IMG/VR virus record: IMGVR_UViG_3300045988_162372
DNA from: a virus
Strand: one strand, 5' to 3'
Length of the DNA stretch: 64,000 bases
Shown here: piece by piece, positions 5,318 through 63,130 of the stretch
Layout of the letters: every line of letters begins with the position of its first letter
Numbering within the stretch: the first letter of the stretch is position 1
Notes under the pieces: model-generated
Told to the model about the DNA's origin: nothing
Databases searched by the model: none
The model's input: the letters and a program-made list of their open reading frames with translations, nothing else
Made by a program: the position numbers and the translations under genes

Positions 5318-5586
5318 TAAATAAGAAAGAGAGAGAGTGATAAACTTTATGCTTGGCTAGCCCTTCGGATGTATTTGGTCGGATATGTTCGTCGTTTAAT
5401 TAAGGAAGCTACAATTCCCTTACGACCTTAAATATCAGTTCGCTAACAAACTGATTATGGATAAGGTAGCGTGTTAGCTAACATATAAAGGGCCTGCCAA
5501 AATTAGCCCTAATGATAAAAAACTAGTAAAGACGAAGTTTCTTCTGTTAATATGGTTGGGAAGTTTTAGATAGTCTTAAATTTAGA
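5318..5586 (+). ncRNA. ORF-free structured leader upstream of tRNA (candidate ncRNA)
   Basis: Several hairpins, e.g. ATCAGTT/AACTGAT 5434-5456, palindrome GTTAGCTAAC, AGGGC/GCCCT; no coding potential. Confidence 0.4.
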
Positions 5587-5660
5587 GGGCCTGTAACTCA
5601 GTCGGTAAGAGTAACTGACTCATAATCAGGAGGTCGCAGGTTCAAGCCCTGCCAGGCCCA
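5587..5660 (+). tRNA. tRNA with CAU anticodon (elongator Met or Ile2/lysidine type)
   Basis: Hand-folded cloverleaf: acceptor GGGCCTG/CAGGCCC, D stem ACTC/GAGT, anticodon loop CTCATAA, T stem GCAGG/CCTGC, T loop TTCAAGC, A73; no encoded CCA. Confidence 0.9.
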
Positions 5661-5665
5661 CACAA

Positions 5666-5681
5666 TGTACTCAATCGAGTA
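5666..5681 (+). repeat. dyad motif TGTACTC-N4-GAGTA, copy 4
   Basis: TGTACTCAATCGAGTA, 6 nt after tRNA 3' end. Confidence 0.8.
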
Positions 5682-5737
5682 TGGTATATTTAACAAATAA
5701 TTAACACGAAAAACTTGCAGGGTTGAAGAAAACTTCG

Positions 5738-7002: not shown

Positions 7003-8211
7003 ATGAAGAAAGATTTAATTGGCAAATGGTATAACCCAGACCTTACAGACGAGCAAAATGTTTCTTTATTAAAGGAACATGGTATTAGCATTTCAAAAAG
7101 AACATTGATTACTTGGAGAAAAAATCAAGGTATCGCAAAACAGCGTGGAGGTGATAGAAAAAGTATAGATTTTAAAAATCAAAGTGCAATTTTCAAAGTG
7201 CAAAATATTGCAGATAAATCAAAGTGCAATTTTCAAAGTGCAAATTCTTCTGAAAATCAAAGTGAAGAAATCAAAGTGCAATTATTAACTAATCAAAGTG
7301 CAAAAATTACAAAATCAAAGTGCAAAAATCAAGATGCAATTTTAGAAAATCAAAGTATCATTTCTGACCAAAGTATCAAAATCAAAGTATCAAACCCTCT
7401 AAATCAAAGTGCAATTTCAGAAGAAGAAAGTGATGTTCTGGATTGGGATAATGAAGATGAAAAGTTCGTGGAAATAATGCCGAAAGGTAGAATAACAAGT
7501 GAAATGTATGATAAGATGTTCGGCGATGATAGCGTTCCACATTACACTGGAAAAACACCTCCCAAACAAATAACTCTTGAAACTTTCAGAAATGAAACAG
7601 AGGATTTGCCAGTTAAGGATGTTAAGTATTATCTTTCAAAAAATCTTCCCGAAGTGATTGATGATGCAGAGGAATTCAAGAAGTGGATTAACGCCACATT
7701 CTACCTATTGAAAGGTACAAAAAACTGGACTGACTATCTGTTACATAGAGAAACATACAGCAAGATTTTGGCAGCGGCAAATAGAGGGTATAGTGCTGAT
7801 TATGAGAAGGGTACAACCGTTGAACAATGGCAAATTCAAAGGGCAAAGGATAGCTATTATAAAATGTGGGAAAACTATAAATACCCATACTTTGAAAAGA
7901 AATATTCTAACGAACCTTATAATGTCGCTTGCGAGGATTTATATAAGACTTACGGGATTGTTCCAATGAGGTTGGAAGATTACAGAAGAATAATGGATGA
8001 AAAGATGGGAAAGAAACAAGAGAAAATCAATTCAGACCCAAATTGGCAACCGTTCTCAATGAAAGGAAATACATACGCTGATGAGGATTATGACGAAGAT
8101 GAGGAAGAGGAAATTGAAAGAAAGAATTGCGATAAGGATATTTCAAACAAAGCTGTAAACGGAATGACAAATGAAGAAATGATGAGATTTGTTTGTGATG
8201 GAAATTTCTAA
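7003..8211 (+). CDS. putative DNA-binding, replication-initiator-like protein carrying iterons in its own coding sequence
   Basis: N-terminal HTH-like segment (EQNVSLLKEHGISISKRTLITWRKNQG); NQSA/KSKC repeats encoded by 12-nt DNA repeats; acidic C-terminus. Confidence 0.55.
   Translation: MKKDLIGKWYNPDLTDEQNVSLLKEHGISISKRTLITWRKNQGIAKQRGGDRKSIDFKNQSAIFKVQNIADKSKCNFQSANSSENQSEEIKVQLLTNQSAKITKSKCKNQDAILENQSIISDQSIKIKVSNPLNQSAISEEESDVLDWDNEDEKFVEIMPKGRITSEMYDKMFGDDSVPHYTGKTPPKQITLETFRNETEDLPVKDVKYYLSKNLPEVIDDAEEFKKWINATFYLLKGTKNWTDYLLHRETYSKILAAANRGYSADYEKGTTVEQWQIQRAKDSYYKMWENYKYPYFEKKYSNEPYNVACEDLYKTYGIVPMRLEDYRRIMDEKMGKKQEKINSDPNWQPFSMKGNTYADEDYDEDEEEEIERKNCDKDISNKAVNGMTNEEMMRFVCDGNF
7178..7413 (+). 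repeat. iteron cluster 1: 13 copies of ATCAAAGTGCAA / ATCAAAGTATCA
   Basis: Copies counted by eye at 7178, 7193, 7218, 7233, 7256, 7270, 7292, 7314, 7328, 7349, 7367, 7381, 7402. Confidence 0.85.
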
Positions 8212-8906: not shown

Positions 8907-9812
8907 ATGAGTCATTTCGCAGTTATGGTCATCGGAGATAATGTTGAAGAACAACTATCAAAGTATGATGAAAACATTAAAGTAGAGGAATATTGTAAGG
9001 GAGAAGTTACAGAAGACGAGAAGAAGTGCATGATCGAATATTACGAGCGTGAAAAGGGTGAAACATTCAATAGCTTCGATGAATGCTATACAAGGTACGG
9101 GAAAGATTGGAATGATAACCGTTACAGAAAAGATACAGACGGTAAGTGGAAAGTATATAGCACATACAACCCTCTTTCAAAATGGGATTGGTGGCAAGTC
9201 GGAGGTCGTTTCTCTGGTGCATTTATCACTCATATCAAAAAGGATGTAAAGGTTTCAGATGAAAATTACGGAGAGCCTTCGTGGTGTACAAAAGAGATTG
9301 GAGTTGACCGCATTGAAAAGAAACATATTGATTTTGAAGCAATACGCAAGGATGCTGAAACTGATGCAAGAGAACGCTATCGTAATATTGCGAGATTGTT
9401 TAAGAATGGAGAAATACCAAAGGTAGGCATGACTTGGGCAAAGGTATGTGAATTGTTCAAAGATAAAACTTTGGATGAAAAACGGAATATCTACAATGCA
9501 CAAACGGCTGTCATTGAATGGAACAAAGCAAGAGAAGAGGATAAAAATAGTACTTCACCCGTACTTGGTTTCTTTACAAGTATTGAGGATTACCAAATGA
9601 GTGAAGAAGAATATGTCAAGAAAGCTGGTGATGAATCTTTTGTTCCCTTTGCAGTTGTCAAGGATGGTAAATGGTATGAGCGTGGAGAAATGGGATGGTG
9701 GGCAATGGTAGCCAACGAAAAAGAGCCAACAGAATGGAATGAAATTGTAAGGAAATTGTTAGATGAAACTGACGATGATGAAATGATAACATTTGTTGAT
9801 TGTCATATTTGA
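8907..9812 (+). CDS. hypothetical protein (301 aa)
   Basis: ORF track; SD; motif WDWWQVGGRF; family not recognised. Confidence 0.75.
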   Translation: MSHFAVMVIGDNVEEQLSKYDENIKVEEYCKGEVTEDEKKCMIEYYEREKGETFNSFDECYTRYGKDWNDNRYRKDTDGKWKVYSTYNPLSKWDWWQVGGRFSGAFITHIKKDVKVSDENYGEPSWCTKEIGVDRIEKKHIDFEAIRKDAETDARERYRNIARLFKNGEIPKVGMTWAKVCELFKDKTLDEKRNIYNAQTAVIEWNKAREEDKNSTSPVLGFFTSIEDYQMSEEEYVKKAGDESFVPFAVVKDGKWYERGEMGWWAMVANEKEPTEWNEIVRKLLDETDDDEMITFVDCHI

Positions 9813-9837
9813 CAATAATGTAGTGTGGACAAATTTT

Positions 9838-9876
9838 ATGCTATTGCTATTGTGAAAATAGTAATAGCATTTTTAT
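9838..9876 (+). terminator. rho-independent terminator
   Basis: 14-bp stem ATGCTATTGCTATT/AATAGTAATAGCAT then T5. Confidence 0.75.
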
Positions 9877-9936
9877 TTATATCTTGATTTATACGGTGAT
9901 TTTTATTATCTTATTAAAAGATAATAAATTTAAATT

Positions 9937-11037
9937 ATGAAAGATATAAAGCAACACTTAAATGTATTAATGTATGATCTTACATTGAAAAAGATAGAAG
10001 ATGTTAAAATCGGTGACTTATTAATGGGTGACGATGGTACATATAGAAGAGTAATAAGTAAAACAAATAAATATGGTAAGATATATAATATACATCAAAC
10101 TAGTGGGGAAGATTATTTTACAAATGGTGAACATACGCTTGTATTAAAAAAATCGGAAACTGCCAAGAGGCCATACGGTAATATAACGAAAAAAGGTACA
10201 CTTCGACATCCTAATGGACGATTGGCATCTTATGAGGATTATGAAAATATGAATATAATAGATTTTTTGCAAAAATCACTTACATTTAGAGAAAATTTTT
10301 TCACTTTTAAACCTACAACAATTCATTGTGAAGAAAAAGAAGTGTATATTGATCCTTATCTCCTGGGTATTTGGTTAGGAGATGGTTCTGCTCGTAATAC
10401 TTCAATAATCTCAATGGATGATGAAATTATTAAGTACATATATGAGTATGCAGACAAAAATAATTTATCTGTGAATAAACTTGAACGGGATTGGGAAAAA
10501 GCTGATGTATATAAATTAAATAGACCACTTGTTAATAGGACAAGGAAGAATGAGCTTCTAGAAAATTTACGAAAATATAATTTAATAAATAATAAACACA
10601 TTCCACAAGAATATATAAATAATAGTGAAAGAGTTAGAATTGAATTAATGGCAGGATTAATAGATACAGATGGCAGTTTGTCTAAAAATAACGTTTATGA
10701 ATTTTATCAAAAATCGTATGATTTTATACGAGATGTTAAAATAATTGCGGATTCTTTAGGATTTAGAACAAGTTTACGTGAAAAGAAAAATTGTATTTGT
10801 AATGGAAAAAATTATGGAACACATTATAGATTAAGTATAAGCGGAGATTTATGGAGAATACCGTGTAAAGTGAAAAGAAAAAAGGTAACAAAAGATATGT
10901 TAAGCAAAAATAAGGATTGGAGAGTTTCAATGATTAAACCTATTGAAATAGGGGATGGCGAATATACTGAAATAAAAGTTGATGGAAATGGAAACTATTT
11001 ATTAGGTGACTTTACAATAGCACATAATTCGATATAG
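9937..11037 (+). CDS. free-standing intein-like (Hint + LAGLIDADG) homing endonuclease
   Basis: Intein blocks: VLMYDLTLKKIEDVKIGD (A, Cys1 replaced by Asn), TNGEHTLVL (B), LLGIWLGDGS and LMAGLIDTDGS (two LAGLIDADG), EIKVDGNGNYLLGDFTIAHNS (F/G); no promoter box; more AT-rich than neighbours. Confidence 0.8.
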   Translation: MKDIKQHLNVLMYDLTLKKIEDVKIGDLLMGDDGTYRRVISKTNKYGKIYNIHQTSGEDYFTNGEHTLVLKKSETAKRPYGNITKKGTLRHPNGRLASYEDYENMNIIDFLQKSLTFRENFFTFKPTTIHCEEKEVYIDPYLLGIWLGDGSARNTSIISMDDEIIKYIYEYADKNNLSVNKLERDWEKADVYKLNRPLVNRTRKNELLENLRKYNLINNKHIPQEYINNSERVRIELMAGLIDTDGSLSKNNVYEFYQKSYDFIRDVKIIADSLGFRTSLREKKNCICNGKNYGTHYRLSISGDLWRIPCKVKRKKVTKDMLSKNKDWRVSMIKPIEIGDGEYTEIKVDGNGNYLLGDFTIAHNSI

Positions 11038-11041
11038 TAAG

Positions 11042-11746
11042 ATGAATCAAATAGACATTAGAAAAATAGTTAATGAATGTATCTCTGCTTTAAAAGAGAG
11101 ACATTGTATAATTCAAGAAAATAGACTCGTAACATTTGGTAAAAGAGTATATCCTAATAGTGGGTGGTGTATTTTTTTAACAGGTGGTTCTGGATGTGGA
11201 AAAGGCTATACACTTAATAATCAACTTCCAATCAACGGAAAAGTTATCAATGTTGACCATTGGAAGAAAACCTTTGCCAAAATGAATAATATTGACTATG
11301 ATAGCCATGACCCAGAACAAGTAAGTCAATTACATAAAGCAATTGCAGATAAGGGTTATAAGGAGAAATATATAAACAATCTTTTTAACCCACAAGCACA
11401 CAATAGCAAAGACAGATTACCAAACATTATCTTTGACATTACAGGAAAAAATCCCTACCATGATGTCTTGGATATTGCGCAGGACGCACAAGACTTAGGA
11501 TATAAGACAATGCTTGTATGGGTAGTTGCGACAAGAAGTGAAGCAATACTAAGAAACTTGAAAAGGGATAGAAAGGTTCCAGATTCAGTCTTTCACTCAA
11601 TACACAATATGATATTGGACAATATGCCACGTTTCCTGCAAGGAAGTTATGCCACAGAGTGTTTGGATGATGCTTGGCTTATATTTTCTTCCGCCCCGAT
11701 ATTTCCAGAGGTGATTTGGAGGGTGATGAAAAGAAAACAGCCGTAG
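11042..11746 (+). CDS. P-loop kinase, zeta-toxin-like fold (N-terminal part of an apparently frameshifted gene)
   Basis: Walker A GGSGCGKG; GYKTMLVWVVATRSEAILRNLKRDRKVP resembles the zeta-toxin family C-terminal motif. Confidence 0.6.
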   Translation: MNQIDIRKIVNECISALKERHCIIQENRLVTFGKRVYPNSGWCIFLTGGSGCGKGYTLNNQLPINGKVINVDHWKKTFAKMNNIDYDSHDPEQVSQLHKAIADKGYKEKYINNLFNPQAHNSKDRLPNIIFDITGKNPYHDVLDIAQDAQDLGYKTMLVWVVATRSEAILRNLKRDRKVPDSVFHSIHNMILDNMPRFLQGSYATECLDDAWLIFSSAPIFPEVIWRVMKRKQP

Positions 11747-11961
11747 TACAACTTCAAAGAGGAAGTAAAGGTTTTATAATTGATAAAAATACAATGCAAC
11801 GTCTTGTACAATATCTTGGTGAGAGAGAAGCAAATGTGGATAATCCACAGACATTCCTATCAAGCAAGGAAGTAATAGACAGATACGGTATTCCAAACGA
11901 TAAGGGTGGTTATGATGTTGATAGAACAAAGATAGACCCAAAGAAAGGATTATATCGTTAA
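11674..11961 (+). pseudogene. -1 frame continuation of 11042-11746
   Basis: Frame opens at 11671, overlaps the end of the upstream ORF; listed start is TTG, no SD; T4 run at 11684-11687. Confidence 0.4.
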
Positions 11962-26092: not shown

Positions 26093-26941
26093 ATGTTAAA
26101 AGAGTTTTTAGAACATAACAATCCATGTGATATCTGTTTGAATGAAAAATGTAGGGGAAAACATACTTGTAATTGTTCTACTTGTAAGATACTTGCTGAT
26201 TGTCCCAAATTTTTACGTGCTGTGATAAGAATAACGAATAAATGTACCCAGACTTGTTCGCATTGTTGTTTTAAGAGTTCACCAAAAAGCAATATCATGA
26301 TGAATATCGAAATGGCAAAAAATGTGGCGGCATTTATTAAATCTAATAAGGTATGTGATTTGAATGTGATGGGTGGTGAATTTTTCTGTAACCCAGATTG
26401 GTATGAAATACTTTCCATTCTTATAGACAGCACTCATTCCATGCGCCTTGTAACAAACGGTGATTGGGCGGCCAATAAAGTTATTGCAGACAAAGTTATA
26501 GAATTTATAAATTTAAACAAAAATAAAGTTAGAATAGCCATATCAAAAGACAAGTGGCATACAAACAAGAATATTGAAAATGCAGAAGAATATATTAAAC
26601 AGACTGGCGCATTATATCATGTCGCCTTACCGTCAGAGACAACTGATAGTTCCATTGTTCCTATTGGAAGAAGTGAACTTGAATATACACCTTTTTATTC
26701 TTTTGCTGGTTGTTATTGCCATAATCCCTATGAACAATATACGATTCTTATTGATGAGAATGGGGATATCTATAAATGTGGGTTTGGCGCATGGAAATAT
26801 GCAAATATCAAGGGCTACATAAATGGGGGTTTCAACAAAAAGTTTAAAGAATTTAACAAAAAATTTTATGACATCTTTATTCCATCTTGCAAGTCTTGTC
26901 TGTATGCTTGTAATAAAGAACGTCGAGTTAAAACGGATTAA
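26093..26941 (+). CDS. radical SAM protein with Cys-rich N-terminal extension
   Basis: CX3CX2C in ITNKCTQTCSHCCF; upstream CDIC..C..C.C..C...C cluster; GGE-like MGGEFF. Confidence 0.7.
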   Translation: MLKEFLEHNNPCDICLNEKCRGKHTCNCSTCKILADCPKFLRAVIRITNKCTQTCSHCCFKSSPKSNIMMNIEMAKNVAAFIKSNKVCDLNVMGGEFFCNPDWYEILSILIDSTHSMRLVTNGDWAANKVIADKVIEFINLNKNKVRIAISKDKWHTNKNIENAEEYIKQTGALYHVALPSETTDSSIVPIGRSELEYTPFYSFAGCYCHNPYEQYTILIDENGDIYKCGFGAWKYANIKGYINGGFNKKFKEFNKKFYDIFIPSCKSCLYACNKERRVKTD

Positions 26942-35874: not shown

Positions 35875-37095
35875 ATGAAACGTGCATACAAATACAAACT
35901 GAAACCAACAATGAGGCAGCAACAAATGTTGTTGCAGCATTTCGGTTGTTGCCGTTTCATATACAACTGGGGATTGGATAGGAAAAAGAATGCATGGACG
36001 AATGAAAAGAAATCCATAGGTTATCTTCAACTTGCAAGGGAATTAACGCTATTGAAGAATGACGGCGAACATGGTTGGCTGAAAAATGTGGCAAACGAAA
36101 GTTTGCAGCAATCATTAAGAAACTTGGATAATGCTTATACGCAGTTCTTCAAGGCAAAGAAGGGATTCCCCAAATTCAGATCGAAGAAACACAGCAAGAA
36201 CGTATGCAAGTTCATCAACAACGTGCGCTTTGACTTTGATAAATGGAAAGTCAGAATACCCAAGATGGGATGGACAAAGTTGTGTCACAACAAAGCATTT
36301 GACTTGTCCAAATGCAAGATTGGAACTCTTACAGTGTCACAGGACAAATGTGGAGACTACTGGTGCGTAATCATTGTCGAGGATGGTGAAAAACCGAAAC
36401 CGAAAGCCAAGATTTCGGAGAAAACTGCCGTTGGCGTAGATTTAGGCATCAAAGATTTTGCCATATTGTCCGATGGTACAAAATATGGAAATAACAAATT
36501 CCTTGAAAAAGGACAAATACGCTTGAAGAAATTGCAACGCAGGTTTTCAAAAGCACAGAAAGGGTCGAAAAGAAGGGAAAGGCTGAAAATTAAAATCGCA
36601 AGACAGCACAGAAGAATATCCAACCGCAGGTCGAATTTCTTGCACAAACTGACAACCGATTTAATGTGCAAATATGACACAATCTGCCTTGAGAACCTTA
36701 ATGTGCAAGGGATGATGCAAAATCATCATTTGGCAAATGCAATTTCAAGCGTTTCATGGAATGAATTTGTAAGACAACTTGCATACAAAGCCGAATGGAA
36801 TGGGAAAAACGTGATATTTATCGGCAGGTTTGAACCCAGTAGCAAGACTTGCTCTTGTTGTGGGTACATTAAGAAAGACCTATCATTGAAAGACAGAAGT
36901 TGGATTTGCTCCAAATGTGGCGCAAGCCATGACAGGGATGTGAATGCAGCAATAAACATACGCAACTTTGGATTGCATCCACAATCGCAGGTTGCGATAG
37001 AAAATAAAATCCCAGAGGTAACTGGGATAAATACGGACGGTGAGGGCAATGGCACAAGTCACCCTGTGAAACGTCAAGATAATAAACCGTGTTAG
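35875..37095 (+). CDS. tnpB: TnpB (OrfB) RNA-guided endonuclease, IS200/IS605 family
   Basis: N-terminal YKYKLKPT..Q...L...FG.CRFIYN; RuvC-I GVDLGIKDFA; RuvC-II ICLENLN; zinc finger CSCCG...CSKCG; RuvC-III HDRDVNAAINI. Confidence 0.9.
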   Translation: MKRAYKYKLKPTMRQQQMLLQHFGCCRFIYNWGLDRKKNAWTNEKKSIGYLQLARELTLLKNDGEHGWLKNVANESLQQSLRNLDNAYTQFFKAKKGFPKFRSKKHSKNVCKFINNVRFDFDKWKVRIPKMGWTKLCHNKAFDLSKCKIGTLTVSQDKCGDYWCVIIVEDGEKPKPKAKISEKTAVGVDLGIKDFAILSDGTKYGNNKFLEKGQIRLKKLQRRFSKAQKGSKRRERLKIKIARQHRRISNRRSNFLHKLTTDLMCKYDTICLENLNVQGMMQNHHLANAISSVSWNEFVRQLAYKAEWNGKNVIFIGRFEPSSKTCSCCGYIKKDLSLKDRSWICSKCGASHDRDVNAAINIRNFGLHPQSQVAIENKIPEVTGINTDGEGNGTSHPVKRQDNKPC

Positions 37096-57956: not shown

Positions 57957-59162
57957 ATGGAACAAATTATCAAACATTTTACAGACAATGACGCTTATAC
58001 GTTTACTTGTCAATACTACATATTGAAGACATATCCTCGTGCTGAAGTAGAATATAAATTCTTTGATAGGAATCATACAAAGTATCCGAAAGGCTTTGCC
58101 GAGCTATTACAAGAACAGGTGAATTACATGAAAGATGTGATTATCACAGACGAAGAGATTGCATTTATGTCTAAGAATATGTATTATCTTCCTTTATGGT
58201 ATTTTACTTTCTTGAAAGGTTATAGATTTAACCCTAACGAAGTAACTATTTCACAAGATAATGAGGGTCATCTTGATATTGCGGTAAAAGGAAAGTGGTT
58301 TTCAACGATTATGTGGGAAATGCCATTACTTTCTTGTATTTCTGAATTGATGCATAAACTTAATGGTGATGAGGATAAATATAATTTAGCAACAGAATAT
58401 TGGAAAAATTATGATAAAATGACCAAAGCACTTCAAAATGGCTTAATCATCTCCGATATGGGAACAAGACGCAGATTTTCTTATAATTATCATCACAATG
58501 TAATTAGATCTTTTGTTGAAGCATCTGAAAAATCAATGGAAGAACTTTATAGTTACGGAGAATTTGTAGGAACATCAAACGTATGGCTTGCCAAAAGATA
58601 TAATTTAAGACCAATCGGTACGATGTCTCATCAAATTATTTCGTTTGAAGAAACTGTTAGTGGTATCTTTGAATGTAATAATCAAACAATGTCTAAATGG
58701 AGTGAATGTTATGATGGTTTAAACGGAACATATCTCTATGATTGTTTTGGTGATAAAGTATTCTTTAACAATTTCCAAACAAAATATGCAAAATTATTTG
58801 ATGGATTAAGAGTAGATAGTGGTGACGAGTTTGAACAAATAGAAAAAATCATTGATAAATATAAGTCTTTGGGAGTTGATCCTAAGACAAAAACTGTCGT
58901 ATTCAGCAATGGGTTGAATTTGGATAAAGCATTGGAAATACATAAATACATTGGTGGAAGAGTTAGAGATACATATGGTATCGGCACATTCTTTACTTGT
59001 GATATTGAGAATGTTAAACCTTCAAATATTGTAATCAAATTGGTAAAAGGGAGAATTACTGAACAACGTGAATGGCATGATTGTGTGAAGCTCTCCTGTG
59101 ATAAAGGAAAGACACTGGGTAATCAAGAGAAATGTAACTATTTGTCTAACATTATTAATTGA
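57957..59162 (+). CDS. pncB: nicotinate phosphoribosyltransferase
   Basis: DNDAYTFTC and YRFNPNEVTISQDNEGHLDIAVKGKWFSTIMWEMPLLSCISE parallel remembered E. coli PncB DTDAYKLHM / [41 protein letters not shown]. Confidence 0.85.
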   Translation: MEQIIKHFTDNDAYTFTCQYYILKTYPRAEVEYKFFDRNHTKYPKGFAELLQEQVNYMKDVIITDEEIAFMSKNMYYLPLWYFTFLKGYRFNPNEVTISQDNEGHLDIAVKGKWFSTIMWEMPLLSCISELMHKLNGDEDKYNLATEYWKNYDKMTKALQNGLIISDMGTRRRFSYNYHHNVIRSFVEASEKSMEELYSYGEFVGTSNVWLAKRYNLRPIGTMSHQIISFEETVSGIFECNNQTMSKWSECYDGLNGTYLYDCFGDKVFFNNFQTKYAKLFDGLRVDSGDEFEQIEKIIDKYKSLGVDPKTKTVVFSNGLNLDKALEIHKYIGGRVRDTYGIGTFFTCDIENVKPSNIVIKLVKGRITEQREWHDCVKLSCDKGKTLGNQEKCNYLSNIIN

Positions 59163-62083: not shown

Positions 62084-63130
62084 ATGGATAATAATAAAAC
62101 AAGTATTATATTTTTTGGTTCTGGGGATTTTCCTTACCCTACATTTAAGACCATTGTAGAGAATGAAGTTTATGATGTGAAAGGTTTGGTTACTTCTCCG
62201 TATAAGCCGTATTTTTATTCTGAGACATTGAAAGATGTAGCAGAAAGAAACAATATACCTGTGTTTTCAACACATAAGCCAAATTGTGCAGAGCTTGTCG
62301 AATGGTTGAAAGAAAAGGAAACCGACATTTTCTGTGTGATTTCTTATAAATTCCTTTCAAATGATATATTGAGAATTCCAAAGATAACAGCATTTAATGT
62401 ACACGCTTCATTACTGCCACTACTTCGAGGTGCTGCCCCTATTAACTGGGCAATCAGATATGGTTTTAAAAATACTGGTTTAACCTCATTTGTATTAAAT
62501 GAACATATTGATTGCGGAGAGATTATAAATAATATAAGTATCCCGATTGAAAGTAATGATGATTATGGTGTAGTTTTCAATAGATTATCTGTTCTTAATG
62601 TTGGCTTTACCATTGAAACAATATCACGTTTAAGAAAGTCTGATTGGAGACGTTATTTAATACTTCAACCAGATCATATTGAAGATGATATGTTCATGAA
62701 TGCTCCAAGATTGAATAATGATAATTGTACATTAAATACACATATATTTTCTGCATTTAATTATGCAATACCACAACTTTATGATGTGATTAGGTCGCTA
62801 TCACCAAATATAGGGTTAAATATTACATTAAGGGCAATGAATGAAGAAAGAAATGGTTTCTGTTGCCTTAAAAAATATGATGCCAAAATATATAAAGCTA
62901 AACTTTTTCCTGAGATACCAGAAGAACATAAAAGTTATTGCAAGAGTTATTCAAACGTGGTAACTGATGGTAAATCTTTCATGTACTTAGTTAATAATTT
63001 AAACACACAAATTATATCCATTGAAGAAATACAATTAGCAGGAAAGAAAAAACTTAATATAAAGGATTTTGTTGCAGGTTTTCAATGGGCAAGAGATAAA
63101 AATGTATATTTGCTAATAACTGGTAGATAA
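62084..63130 (+). CDS. fmt: methionyl-tRNA formyltransferase-like protein
   Basis: IIFFGSGDF; FNVHASLLPLLRGAAPINWAI vs remembered E. coli NVHGSLLPRWRGAAPIQ; C-terminal IQLAGKKKLNIKDFVAG vs LQPAGKKAMSAQDLLN. Confidence 0.8.
   Translation: MDNNKTSIIFFGSGDFPYPTFKTIVENEVYDVKGLVTSPYKPYFYSETLKDVAERNNIPVFSTHKPNCAELVEWLKEKETDIFCVISYKFLSNDILRIPKITAFNVHASLLPLLRGAAPINWAIRYGFKNTGLTSFVLNEHIDCGEIINNISIPIESNDDYGVVFNRLSVLNVGFTIETISRLRKSDWRRYLILQPDHIEDDMFMNAPRLNNDNCTLNTHIFSAFNYAIPQLYDVIRSLSPNIGLNITLRAMNEERNGFCCLKKYDAKIYKAKLFPEIPEEHKSYCKSYSNVVTDGKSFMYLVNNLNTQIISIEEIQLAGKKKLNIKDFVAGFQWARDKNVYLLITGR

Follow-up and report, generated by a model that had tools for sequence, protein, structure and literature searches.

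The window analysed here, a 64,000-nucleotide stretch of viral DNA (IMG/VR record IMGVR_UViG_3300045988_162372), carries a 366-aa open reading frame (ORF) which in all probability encodes a complete intein-type protein that descended from P-loop inteins, lost its exteins and the nucleophile Cys1 and now acts as a free-standing homing endonuclease. The homing endonuclease gene (HEG) is an ORF of its own between two genes, outside of an intron or intein host gene, in a clade of jumbo phages from gut metagenomes (one IMG/VR contig has a length of 216,649 bp). Lipoprotein-like signal peptides and the AT-rich DNA suggest that their host is probably a gut Bacteroidota. An earlier note on this DNA, made from the letters alone, had proposed a free-standing extein-less protein of the HO/PI-SceI type, which is borne out by the predicted fold, by stop codons on both sides of the ORF and by comparative evidence; its suggestion that the protein acts as a free-standing homing endonuclease likewise fits the behaviour of the gene in comparative genomics.

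The Pfam database assigns residues 9–75 of the protein to Hom_end_hint and residues 222–304 to LAGLIDADG_3/Hom_end, and shows no further domain, including a C-terminal zinc finger, the protein ending two residues past the HN dipeptide. Top sequence matches in the PDB are chains of PI-SceI (E 7e-13), while matches in PHROG comprise intein-bearing terminases, a helicase and a primase, and NCBIfam yields sub-threshold matches to intein-containing proteins only. An AlphaFold2 model computed from 121 aligned sequences reaches a mean predicted local distance difference test score (pLDDT) of 92.8 and a predicted template modelling score (pTM) of 0.90, with lower confidence at residues 80–100 (pLDDT 69–72). 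In Foldseek comparisons, the best match of this model is full-length PI-SceI (TMq 0.72–0.76, E 2e-25), followed by other intein endonucleases and then by I-DmoI, covering the nuclease half, and Prp8 mini-inteins, covering the Hint half. Because the model superposes on full-length PI-SceI, the protein possesses a Hint fold besides the LAGLIDADG domain, and the finding that would have refuted the earlier note in this respect, a LAGLIDADG domain alone, was not obtained. By analogy with PI-SceI, the insert at residues 76–135 might be a DNA-contact region.

For comparison at residue level, the protein was aligned with 117 homologues, leaving out its own clade. The residues of the predicted active site are nearly invariant, with D149 present in 116, K220 in all 117 and D245 in 116 of these sequences; they align with D218, K301 and D326 of PI-SceI. 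Also block B is kept (N63 in 109/117 and H66 in 113/117 homologues), as is block G with H363, N364 and a subsequent Ser, the C-terminus reading ...TIAHN-S-I-stop just as the earlier note had stated for the two residues behind HN. Its claim that all intein blocks are present, however, holds for blocks B to G including the HN-Ser junction but not for block A, which is degenerate in the alignment. Here, the position of the nucleophile, Cys in 105 and Ser in 2 of the 117 true inteins, is occupied by Asp3, an assignment also obtained from the alignment with PI-SceI, and the block-A Thr found in 106/117 homologues is replaced by Leu8. Accordingly, the former placement of Cys1 at Asn9 was six residues off, and not eight residues but only Met-Lys precede position 1. 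This position is free to vary since orthologues of the HEG differ there, having Asp, Ile or Val and, in P0002, Leu. Splicing is chemically implausible without a nucleophile at position 1.

In line with a gene of its own, several in-frame stop codons are found within 15 codons 5' of the HEG start, and the TAG stop is directly followed by TAA, hence no in-frame extein is present. The same ORF limits (366–367 aa) recur in independent assemblies of at least four lineages, with orthologues sharing 96% (L005/L006), 91–93% (L022–L025), 87% (P0002) and 81% (L001–L004) identity with the protein of the window. The upstream gene is complete and not an N-extein; its end is separated from the HEG start by 125 nt, in which an intrinsic-terminator-like hairpin (9838–9870) with a 14-bp stem and subsequent T run is located (1 found versus 0.2 expected), corroborating the terminator of the earlier note. 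HEG-less relatives show another hairpin at the same place. The gap of 4 nt between the HEG stop and the next ATG and the elevated AT content had also been correctly described: GC content is 28.1% versus 37.6 and 35.1% for the neighbouring genes and 31.3% for the whole window, which is the eighth lowest value among 95 ORFs. As for the promoter box that the earlier note had missed, matches to sigma-70-like promoters were not above chance (7 found versus 11.2 expected in a scan restricted to this type), and an Rfam scan of the region did not match any family, including group I introns.

The evident ancestors of the HEG, as judged from sequence comparison, are the classic P-loop inteins, which insert between the Walker A Lys and Ser/Thr (PMC5050341). 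They are the nearest relatives outside the own clade, with 32–48% identity over full-length alignments, and the 117 homologous inteins reside in DnaB, thymidylate kinase (Tmk), thymidine kinase (TK), PhoH, ABC, AAA and terminase proteins. The junctions of this family read ...GK^C...HN^(T/S), where ^ marks the splice positions, with Lys at position –1 in 83/117 and Thr, Ser or Cys at position +1 in 69, 34 and 5 sequences, respectively; the nearest true inteins lie in the P-loop of terminases (TGGRG^C...HN^SGKS). The Ser-Ile tail of the phage protein resembles typical +1/+2 extein residues, a weak similarity as it comprises two residues only. The idea that Lys2 is what remains of the P-loop Lys is not supported, as orthologues have Glu at this position.

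The extein-less state is rare among the relatives. A HMMER scan of 1.84 billion cluster representatives (clusters at 50% identity) retrieved 15,815 relatives at E ≤0.001, 2,755 of them at E ≤1e-30. Among the best 150 of the 15,815 clusters, only the HEG's own is extein-less and matched end to end (1–366 to 1–366), and the score falls from 798 to 311 bits at the next best cluster; nearly all others are embedded in longer proteins, and a few short ones are matched in part. A DNA search of cultured phages did not find a relative of the HEG locus, and among the protein matches listed for cultured phages identity does not exceed 36%, the corresponding genes being annotated as helicase, terminase or hypothetical protein. 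The sole cultured-phage match annotated as homing endonuclease, H30, is actually an intein inside an 882-aa protein. The notion that such a protein is uncommon in phages is thus well founded. In an incomplete literature search, no paper on an extein-less intein-derived homing element in a phage was found, and such elements are reported for yeast HO and WHO only (PMC7282813; bioRxiv 10.64898/2026.08.13.744650).

The distribution of the HEG among related genomes is that of a mobile element. The slot between the upstream and downstream genes is occupied by the HEG in the window, L005/6, L007, L001–4 and L022–25. It lacks the HEG in L032–34 and also in L035, L029–31, L026–28, L020–21, L036 and L117; in these latter genomes, from L035 to L117, the two genes adjoin each other. 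The HEG is spread over three or four diverged phage lineages and missing in their closest sisters. Comparing the window with L035, a sister of the window lineage with 94% identical flanking proteins, homology ends at position 9819 and resumes at 11069, so that 1249 bp stand in place of an unrelated segment of 292 bp; equivalent replacement boundaries are seen in the second pair of HEG-carrying and HEG-less sisters, L023 and L036. Between the window and the L023 lineage, the HEG proteins are 91–93% identical, whereas the flanking proteins share only 60 and 66%. Likewise, synonymous divergence (dS) between L005 and L023 is 0.24 for the HEG but 2.87 for the upstream and 1.46 for the downstream gene. 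A dS value 6–12 times below that of the flanks is beyond the effect of protein-level constraint and shows that the cassette moved laterally between phage lineages.

Further indication of homing comes from the flanks. At informative sites, L023 was compared with two references, namely L036, its sister without the HEG, and L005, which represents the HEG-carrying window clade. Within nt 1–180 of the downstream gene, L023 sides with the HEG-carrying clade at 49 sites and with its sister at 12, in contrast to nt 501–930, with 10 versus 125 sites. Over the upstream gene, L023 sides with the HEG-carrying clade at 29 and with L036 at 262 sites, without any switch near the 3' end. Thus, L023 acquired the HEG along with the start of the downstream gene, which amounts to a one-sided co-conversion tract of about 180 nt, affecting the downstream gene only. 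In the window lineage, the tract is shorter, with 27 nt encoding the nine residues MNQIDIRKI, which resemble the L023 and L001 clades and not the sister sequence MSKYTKSEIRQL. This pattern is the signature of break-initiated gene conversion as known from the 'intronless homing' of the free-standing endonucleases of phage T4 (PMC2988022), and it resembles yeast WHO elements, which replace the neighbouring end of FBA1 (PMC7282813).

From these data we infer that the protein is an endonuclease, where it would cut, and that its Hint domain takes part in DNA binding. In a mixed infection, the enzyme would cut the HEG-less allele of a related phage within or close to the junction of the 301-aa gene with the gene of the P-loop NTPase-like protein. 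The break would then be resected and repaired off the HEG-carrying genome, by which the cassette would be copied in, consisting of terminator, HEG and the start of the downstream gene over a variable length (27 to about 180 nt). The Hint domain would be kept as part of a folded DNA-binding enzyme, as in PI-SceI, and not for splicing. As cleavage site of the empty alleles, either their intergenic region or the start of the downstream gene is the favoured candidate, to which we give an even chance, because it corresponds to the replaced segment and fits both lineages with variable tract lengths.

Only tentatively can the alternative be proposed that the cut falls inside the downstream gene, some 150 nt away from the HEG, where the Walker A motif (P-loop) is encoded, which would resemble the site preference of the intein ancestors; jointly with it, and with the same low probability, the element might sit beside the gene since its GKG motif lacks Ser, Thr or Cys at the GK^S/T position, and changes of a P-loop codon might give immunity. 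The whole intein family inserts in P-loops (PMC5050341), and the motif of the downstream gene, TGGSG-S/C-GKG, has a variable codon matching the +1 residue of the terminase inteins, the GKG part being invariant in 19/19 members of the family. Over about 317 nt, the sole fixed difference between three HEG-carrying genomes and L035 is a change from AGT to TGT (Ser to Cys) at this codon, a second HEG-carrying lineage (L001) has Val here, and the L023 tract ends about 15–40 nt past the P-loop motif. In addition, an independent extein-less intein-like ORF in L150 (P0064) is likewise located directly upstream of a P-loop ATPase gene. However, HEG-less L117 also has Cys and HEG-carrying L023 keeps Ser, so that a non-Ser codon is found in 2/3 HEG-carrying versus 1/7 HEG-less lineages, which is not significant. 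Moreover, the window lineage does not differ from its HEG-less sister over nt 28–153 of the downstream gene, which is hard to square with a break at about nt 150 repaired from an only about 80% identical donor, and at the DNA level the downstream P-loop and the homing site in the terminase are only about 50% similar. An association of Ser, Cys or Val at this codon with HEG status was consequently dismissed, having too few lineages and exceptions in both directions. The Gly after GK was also considered as an immunity mutation and rejected, as GKG is found in all 19 family members, with and without the HEG.

Taken a step further, the element might be the prokaryotic-virus equivalent of yeast WHO, which has been called a 'third category' of homing element. 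It would have abandoned splicing as its GKG target lacks Ser, Thr or Cys, would sit just before the gene, cleave the P-loop sequence in empty alleles and exchange the start of the gene at each homing event. This, too, is rather doubtful; if true, the Ser/Cys/Val variation at the central P-loop codon would be the trace of an arms race and the arrangement in L150 a transitional stage.

Several points weigh against homing by a free-standing endonuclease. The co-conversion tract is clear in one HEG-carrying/HEG-less pair only, the one in the window lineage being limited to 27 nt. In L007 (IMGVR_UViG_3300045988_157961, 7034–7070), the N-terminus of the HEG is frameshifted by a tandem duplication of 8 bp (AATGTATT) that follows codon 13 or thereabouts, indicating that the gene can be lost; this duplication could be a first step of decay or an assembly error, and the HEG is of full length in all other lineages. 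Ordinary homologous recombination between mosaic phages could also have moved the cassette without an endonuclease break. Finally, all genomes are metagenomic assemblies, in which a mosaic pattern could in principle result from chimeric assembly, although several samples of independent origin show these structures alike, which speaks against it.

Regarding the fate of the protein, the ratio of non-synonymous to synonymous substitution rates (dN/dS) of the HEG is 0.10–0.15 overall at dS values up to about 1. In the two more diverged comparisons, the same range is given for each of four regions, namely the N-terminal Hint half, the insert, the endonuclease domain and the C-terminal Hint half. 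Taken singly, the values are 0.07–0.15 for the N-terminal and 0.05–0.13 for the C-terminal Hint half and 0.14–0.20 for the insert, where the closest pair does not show any non-synonymous change. These values indicate a gene maintained by purifying selection and not decaying. A decaying relic, an intein stranded by rearrangement whose endonuclease is no longer active, might be deduced from the degenerate block A with Asp for Cys1 and Leu for Thr, from the frameshifting duplication in one relative and from the downstream gene of the window being itself frameshifted. It is nevertheless highly improbable and the corresponding term of the earlier note has to be abandoned, considering the low dN/dS over substantial divergence, intact catalytic residues, a confident structural model, a full-length ORF in every lineage but one and recent lateral transfer. 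The same note had also considered domestication. In this case, the protein would be a nuclease or DNA-binding protein serving the phage by excluding markers of competitors or by regulating the downstream gene. For such a role, precedents are known with HO (PMC7282813) and T4 marker exclusion (PMC2988022), purifying selection is strong throughout the protein, Hint halves included, and the 4-nt spacing suggests co-expression with the next gene. Yet domestication is unlikely, since the HEG is absent from the closest sister genomes and has been transferred between diverged lineages in the manner of a selfish mobile element, and purifying selection is also expected of active selfish endonucleases while spreading. 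Least probable of all, and hardly worth considering, is that sequencing or assembly errors conceal the exteins of a true intein. Blocks B to G are intact and Ser follows HN, but multiple in-frame stops upstream and the TAG TAA end would have to be explained as well as identical ORF limits in independent assemblies of four lineages, the lack of a nucleophile at position 1 and complete flanking genes that are parted by a terminator and adjoin in HEG-less relatives.

Considered as a free-standing homing endonuclease of intein descent, the protein can be compared with several known systems. PI-SceI (VDE, the yeast VMA1 intein) is the best structural match, sharing the single-chain double-LAGLIDADG endonuclease that is set into a Hint fold, the catalytic Asp pair and Lys, the block B N-x-x-H motif and the C-terminal HN. 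Sequence identity is only about 20%, however, and PI-SceI is inserted in frame in VMA1 and splices by Cys1, in contrast to the extein-less phage protein with Asp at position 1. HO and WHO of budding yeasts are, like the HEG product, extein-less intein-derived LAGLIDADG endonucleases with genes of their own (PMC7282813; bioRxiv 10.64898/2026.08.13.744650). WHO lies beside its host gene, the near end of which it replaces at homing; with the phage element, 27–180 nt from the start of the neighbouring gene travel. Similar to HO, the protein starts at the Cys1 position, with just Met-Lys preceding it. Unlike these yeast proteins, which have a C-terminal zinc finger and lost motif G, it does not bear an added domain and retains motif G (HN^S) in all four orthologue lineages. 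Furthermore, its origin is independent, from a bacterial/phage P-loop intein lineage, its host is a bacteriophage and clusters of elements were not seen. With the Seg and Mob endonucleases of T4-like phages (PMC2988022), the HEG has in common the intergenic ORF, presence and absence among relatives, co-conversion of flanks and a cut probably within or near a neighbouring conserved gene, but Seg and Mob belong to the GIY-YIG or HNH enzymes and lack a Hint domain, while here a complete intein fold surrounds a LAGLIDADG enzyme. Classic P-loop inteins such as TerL1-a and DnaB (PMC5050341) share blocks B to G and the endonuclease; they differ in being in frame between the Walker A Lys and Ser/Thr and in having Cys1, the HEG being located outside of any host ORF. 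Consequently, the HEG joins known kinds, the free-standing phage HEGs and extein-less inteins of the HO/WHO type, as a phage counterpart of the yeast elements, and does not form a separate category.

Table 1. Coordinates of the HEG, its predicted domains and key codons, and the adjoining features within the window.
Feature	Position	Strand	Remarks
Upstream flanking gene	8907..9812	+	301 aa, PHROG 10079; complete, not an N-extein
Mobile cassette: terminator, leader, HEG and first 27 nt of downstream gene	9820..11068	+	from pairwise BLAST versus L035
Intrinsic-terminator-like hairpin, 14-bp stem plus T run, just 5' of HEG	9838..9880	+	hairpin 9838-9870
Mobile-element ORF, extein-less intein-like HEG	9937..11037	+	366 aa, ATG..TAG
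N-terminal Hint half including block B (N63..H66)	9937..10161	+	residues 1-75; Pfam Hom_end_hint
Asp3 codon GAT at intein Cys1 nucleophile position	9943..9945	+	column is Cys in 105/117 inteins
Insert/linker between Hint and endonuclease domain	10162..10341	+	residues 76-135; at position of PI-SceI DNA-recognition region
Double-motif LAGLIDADG endonuclease domain	10342..10851	+	residues 136-305
LAGLIDADG motif 1	10360-10389	+	LLGIWLGDGS; D149 codon 10381-10383
K220 codon	10594-10596	+	catalytic Lys position
LAGLIDADG motif 2	10645-10677	+	LMAGLIDTDGS; D245 codon 10669-10671
C-terminal Hint half, blocks F and G	10852..11034	+	H363-N364 at 11023-11028, then S365 (+1), I366
Downstream neighbour, presumed 'host' gene of the element	11042..11961	+	Zeta-toxin/AAA_33-like P-loop NTPase
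First 9 codons of downstream gene, travelling with HEG	11042..11068	+	MNQIDIRKI here versus MSKYTKSEIRQL in HEG-less sister
Walker A codons GGSGCGKG, candidate cleavage site	11183..11206	+	Cys codon TGT 11195-11197

A deletion of 1 nt near position 11695 (GC-CCC versus GCTCCC or GCACC in L005, L035 and L007) splits the downstream gene of the window, leaving two ORFs (234 and 95 aa), while its relatives encode an intact protein of 306–309 aa. The split indicates either a pseudogene or an assembly error. Inteins were not found in homologues of this gene, as 27/27 have lengths between 190 and 338 aa without a Hint domain. Profile scans of IMG/VR and metagenomes with the downstream gene retrieved distant HEG-less relatives (27–48% identity) plus one known contig and did not yield new pairs of HEG-carrying and HEG-less alleles. 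Within the intergenic region, an AT-rich element (TATTTAT...) is located 3' of the terminator (9871–9936 in the window) in alleles with and without the HEG, and an element of this type is also found in intergenic regions of L020, L026, L032, L035 and L036. It was tried as a shared promoter motif and dropped as it is not enriched upstream of window genes.

Other mobile genes are present in the surroundings. About 4 kb upstream, L005, L006 and L027 have a gene for a 219-aa HNH_3 endonuclease (5163–5822 in L005) which is absent from the window, where 145 bp (about 5544–5689) correspond to 845 bp in L005. A 406-aa TnpB/IS605 OrfB (Cas12f-like) protein is encoded in the window at 35875–37095 (+), and another TnpB gene is located three genes downstream of the NTPase-like gene in L032 (2674–4041). 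Thus, mobile nucleases of more than one kind are encoded by phages of this group. In addition, auxiliary metabolic genes typical of large phages are present in the window (26093–26941, 57957–59162 and 62084–63130), namely for a radical-SAM protein, a nicotinate phosphoribosyltransferase and a formyltransferase.

Among the best 120 matches of the HEG protein, other extein-less derivatives are P0064 and, with an added helicase-associated (HA) domain, P0040, P0088 and P0089, from which it follows that the transition from an intein to an extein-less protein happened more than once. P0064, a 341-aa protein without HN, is encoded in L150 (547–3465; GCA_013565615.1, JACCDO012270932.1) beside a gene for a 601-aa ATPase with the junctions GKAG^C...RN^TGKS. 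This ATPase carries a 43% identical intein which has the first LAGLIDADG half deleted, an arrangement that could represent 'trans-homing' or a transitional stage. A PLAC8-family gene beside this locus suggests a eukaryotic or giant-virus origin. The 450-aa P0040, encoded in L151 (3001–4353) from a Cyclobacteriaceae metagenome-assembled genome (JBKCVO010000037.1), is an extein-less intein-like LAGLIDADG protein that lost HN and gained the HA domain at its C-terminus, without an adjoining P-loop gene; the HA domain, being of DNA-binding type, recalls the zinc finger of HO and WHO. In L118 (4001–7249), a terminase large-subunit gene is apparently broken into three ORFs. One of them is a LAGLIDADG intein of the P-loop (P0006), another, of 451 aa, combines Terminase_3 with Hint and HNH_3 domains and thereby holds a second intein, of the HNH type, and the third is a Terminase_3C piece.

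Extein-less inteins as independent homing elements have so far been characterised only in budding yeasts, with HO and WHO. An example from a phage, here supported by natural pairs of alleles with and without the HEG, would show that the route from an intein to a free-standing endonuclease has been taken more than once. Purifying selection on the Hint fold bears on its non-splicing role, which is presumably in DNA recognition. With only 366 aa, the protein would be a compact LAGLIDADG enzyme of probably new specificity, the target of which can be mapped on known empty alleles, and the locus offers a natural system for studying how P-loop inteins hop between unrelated ATPase genes.

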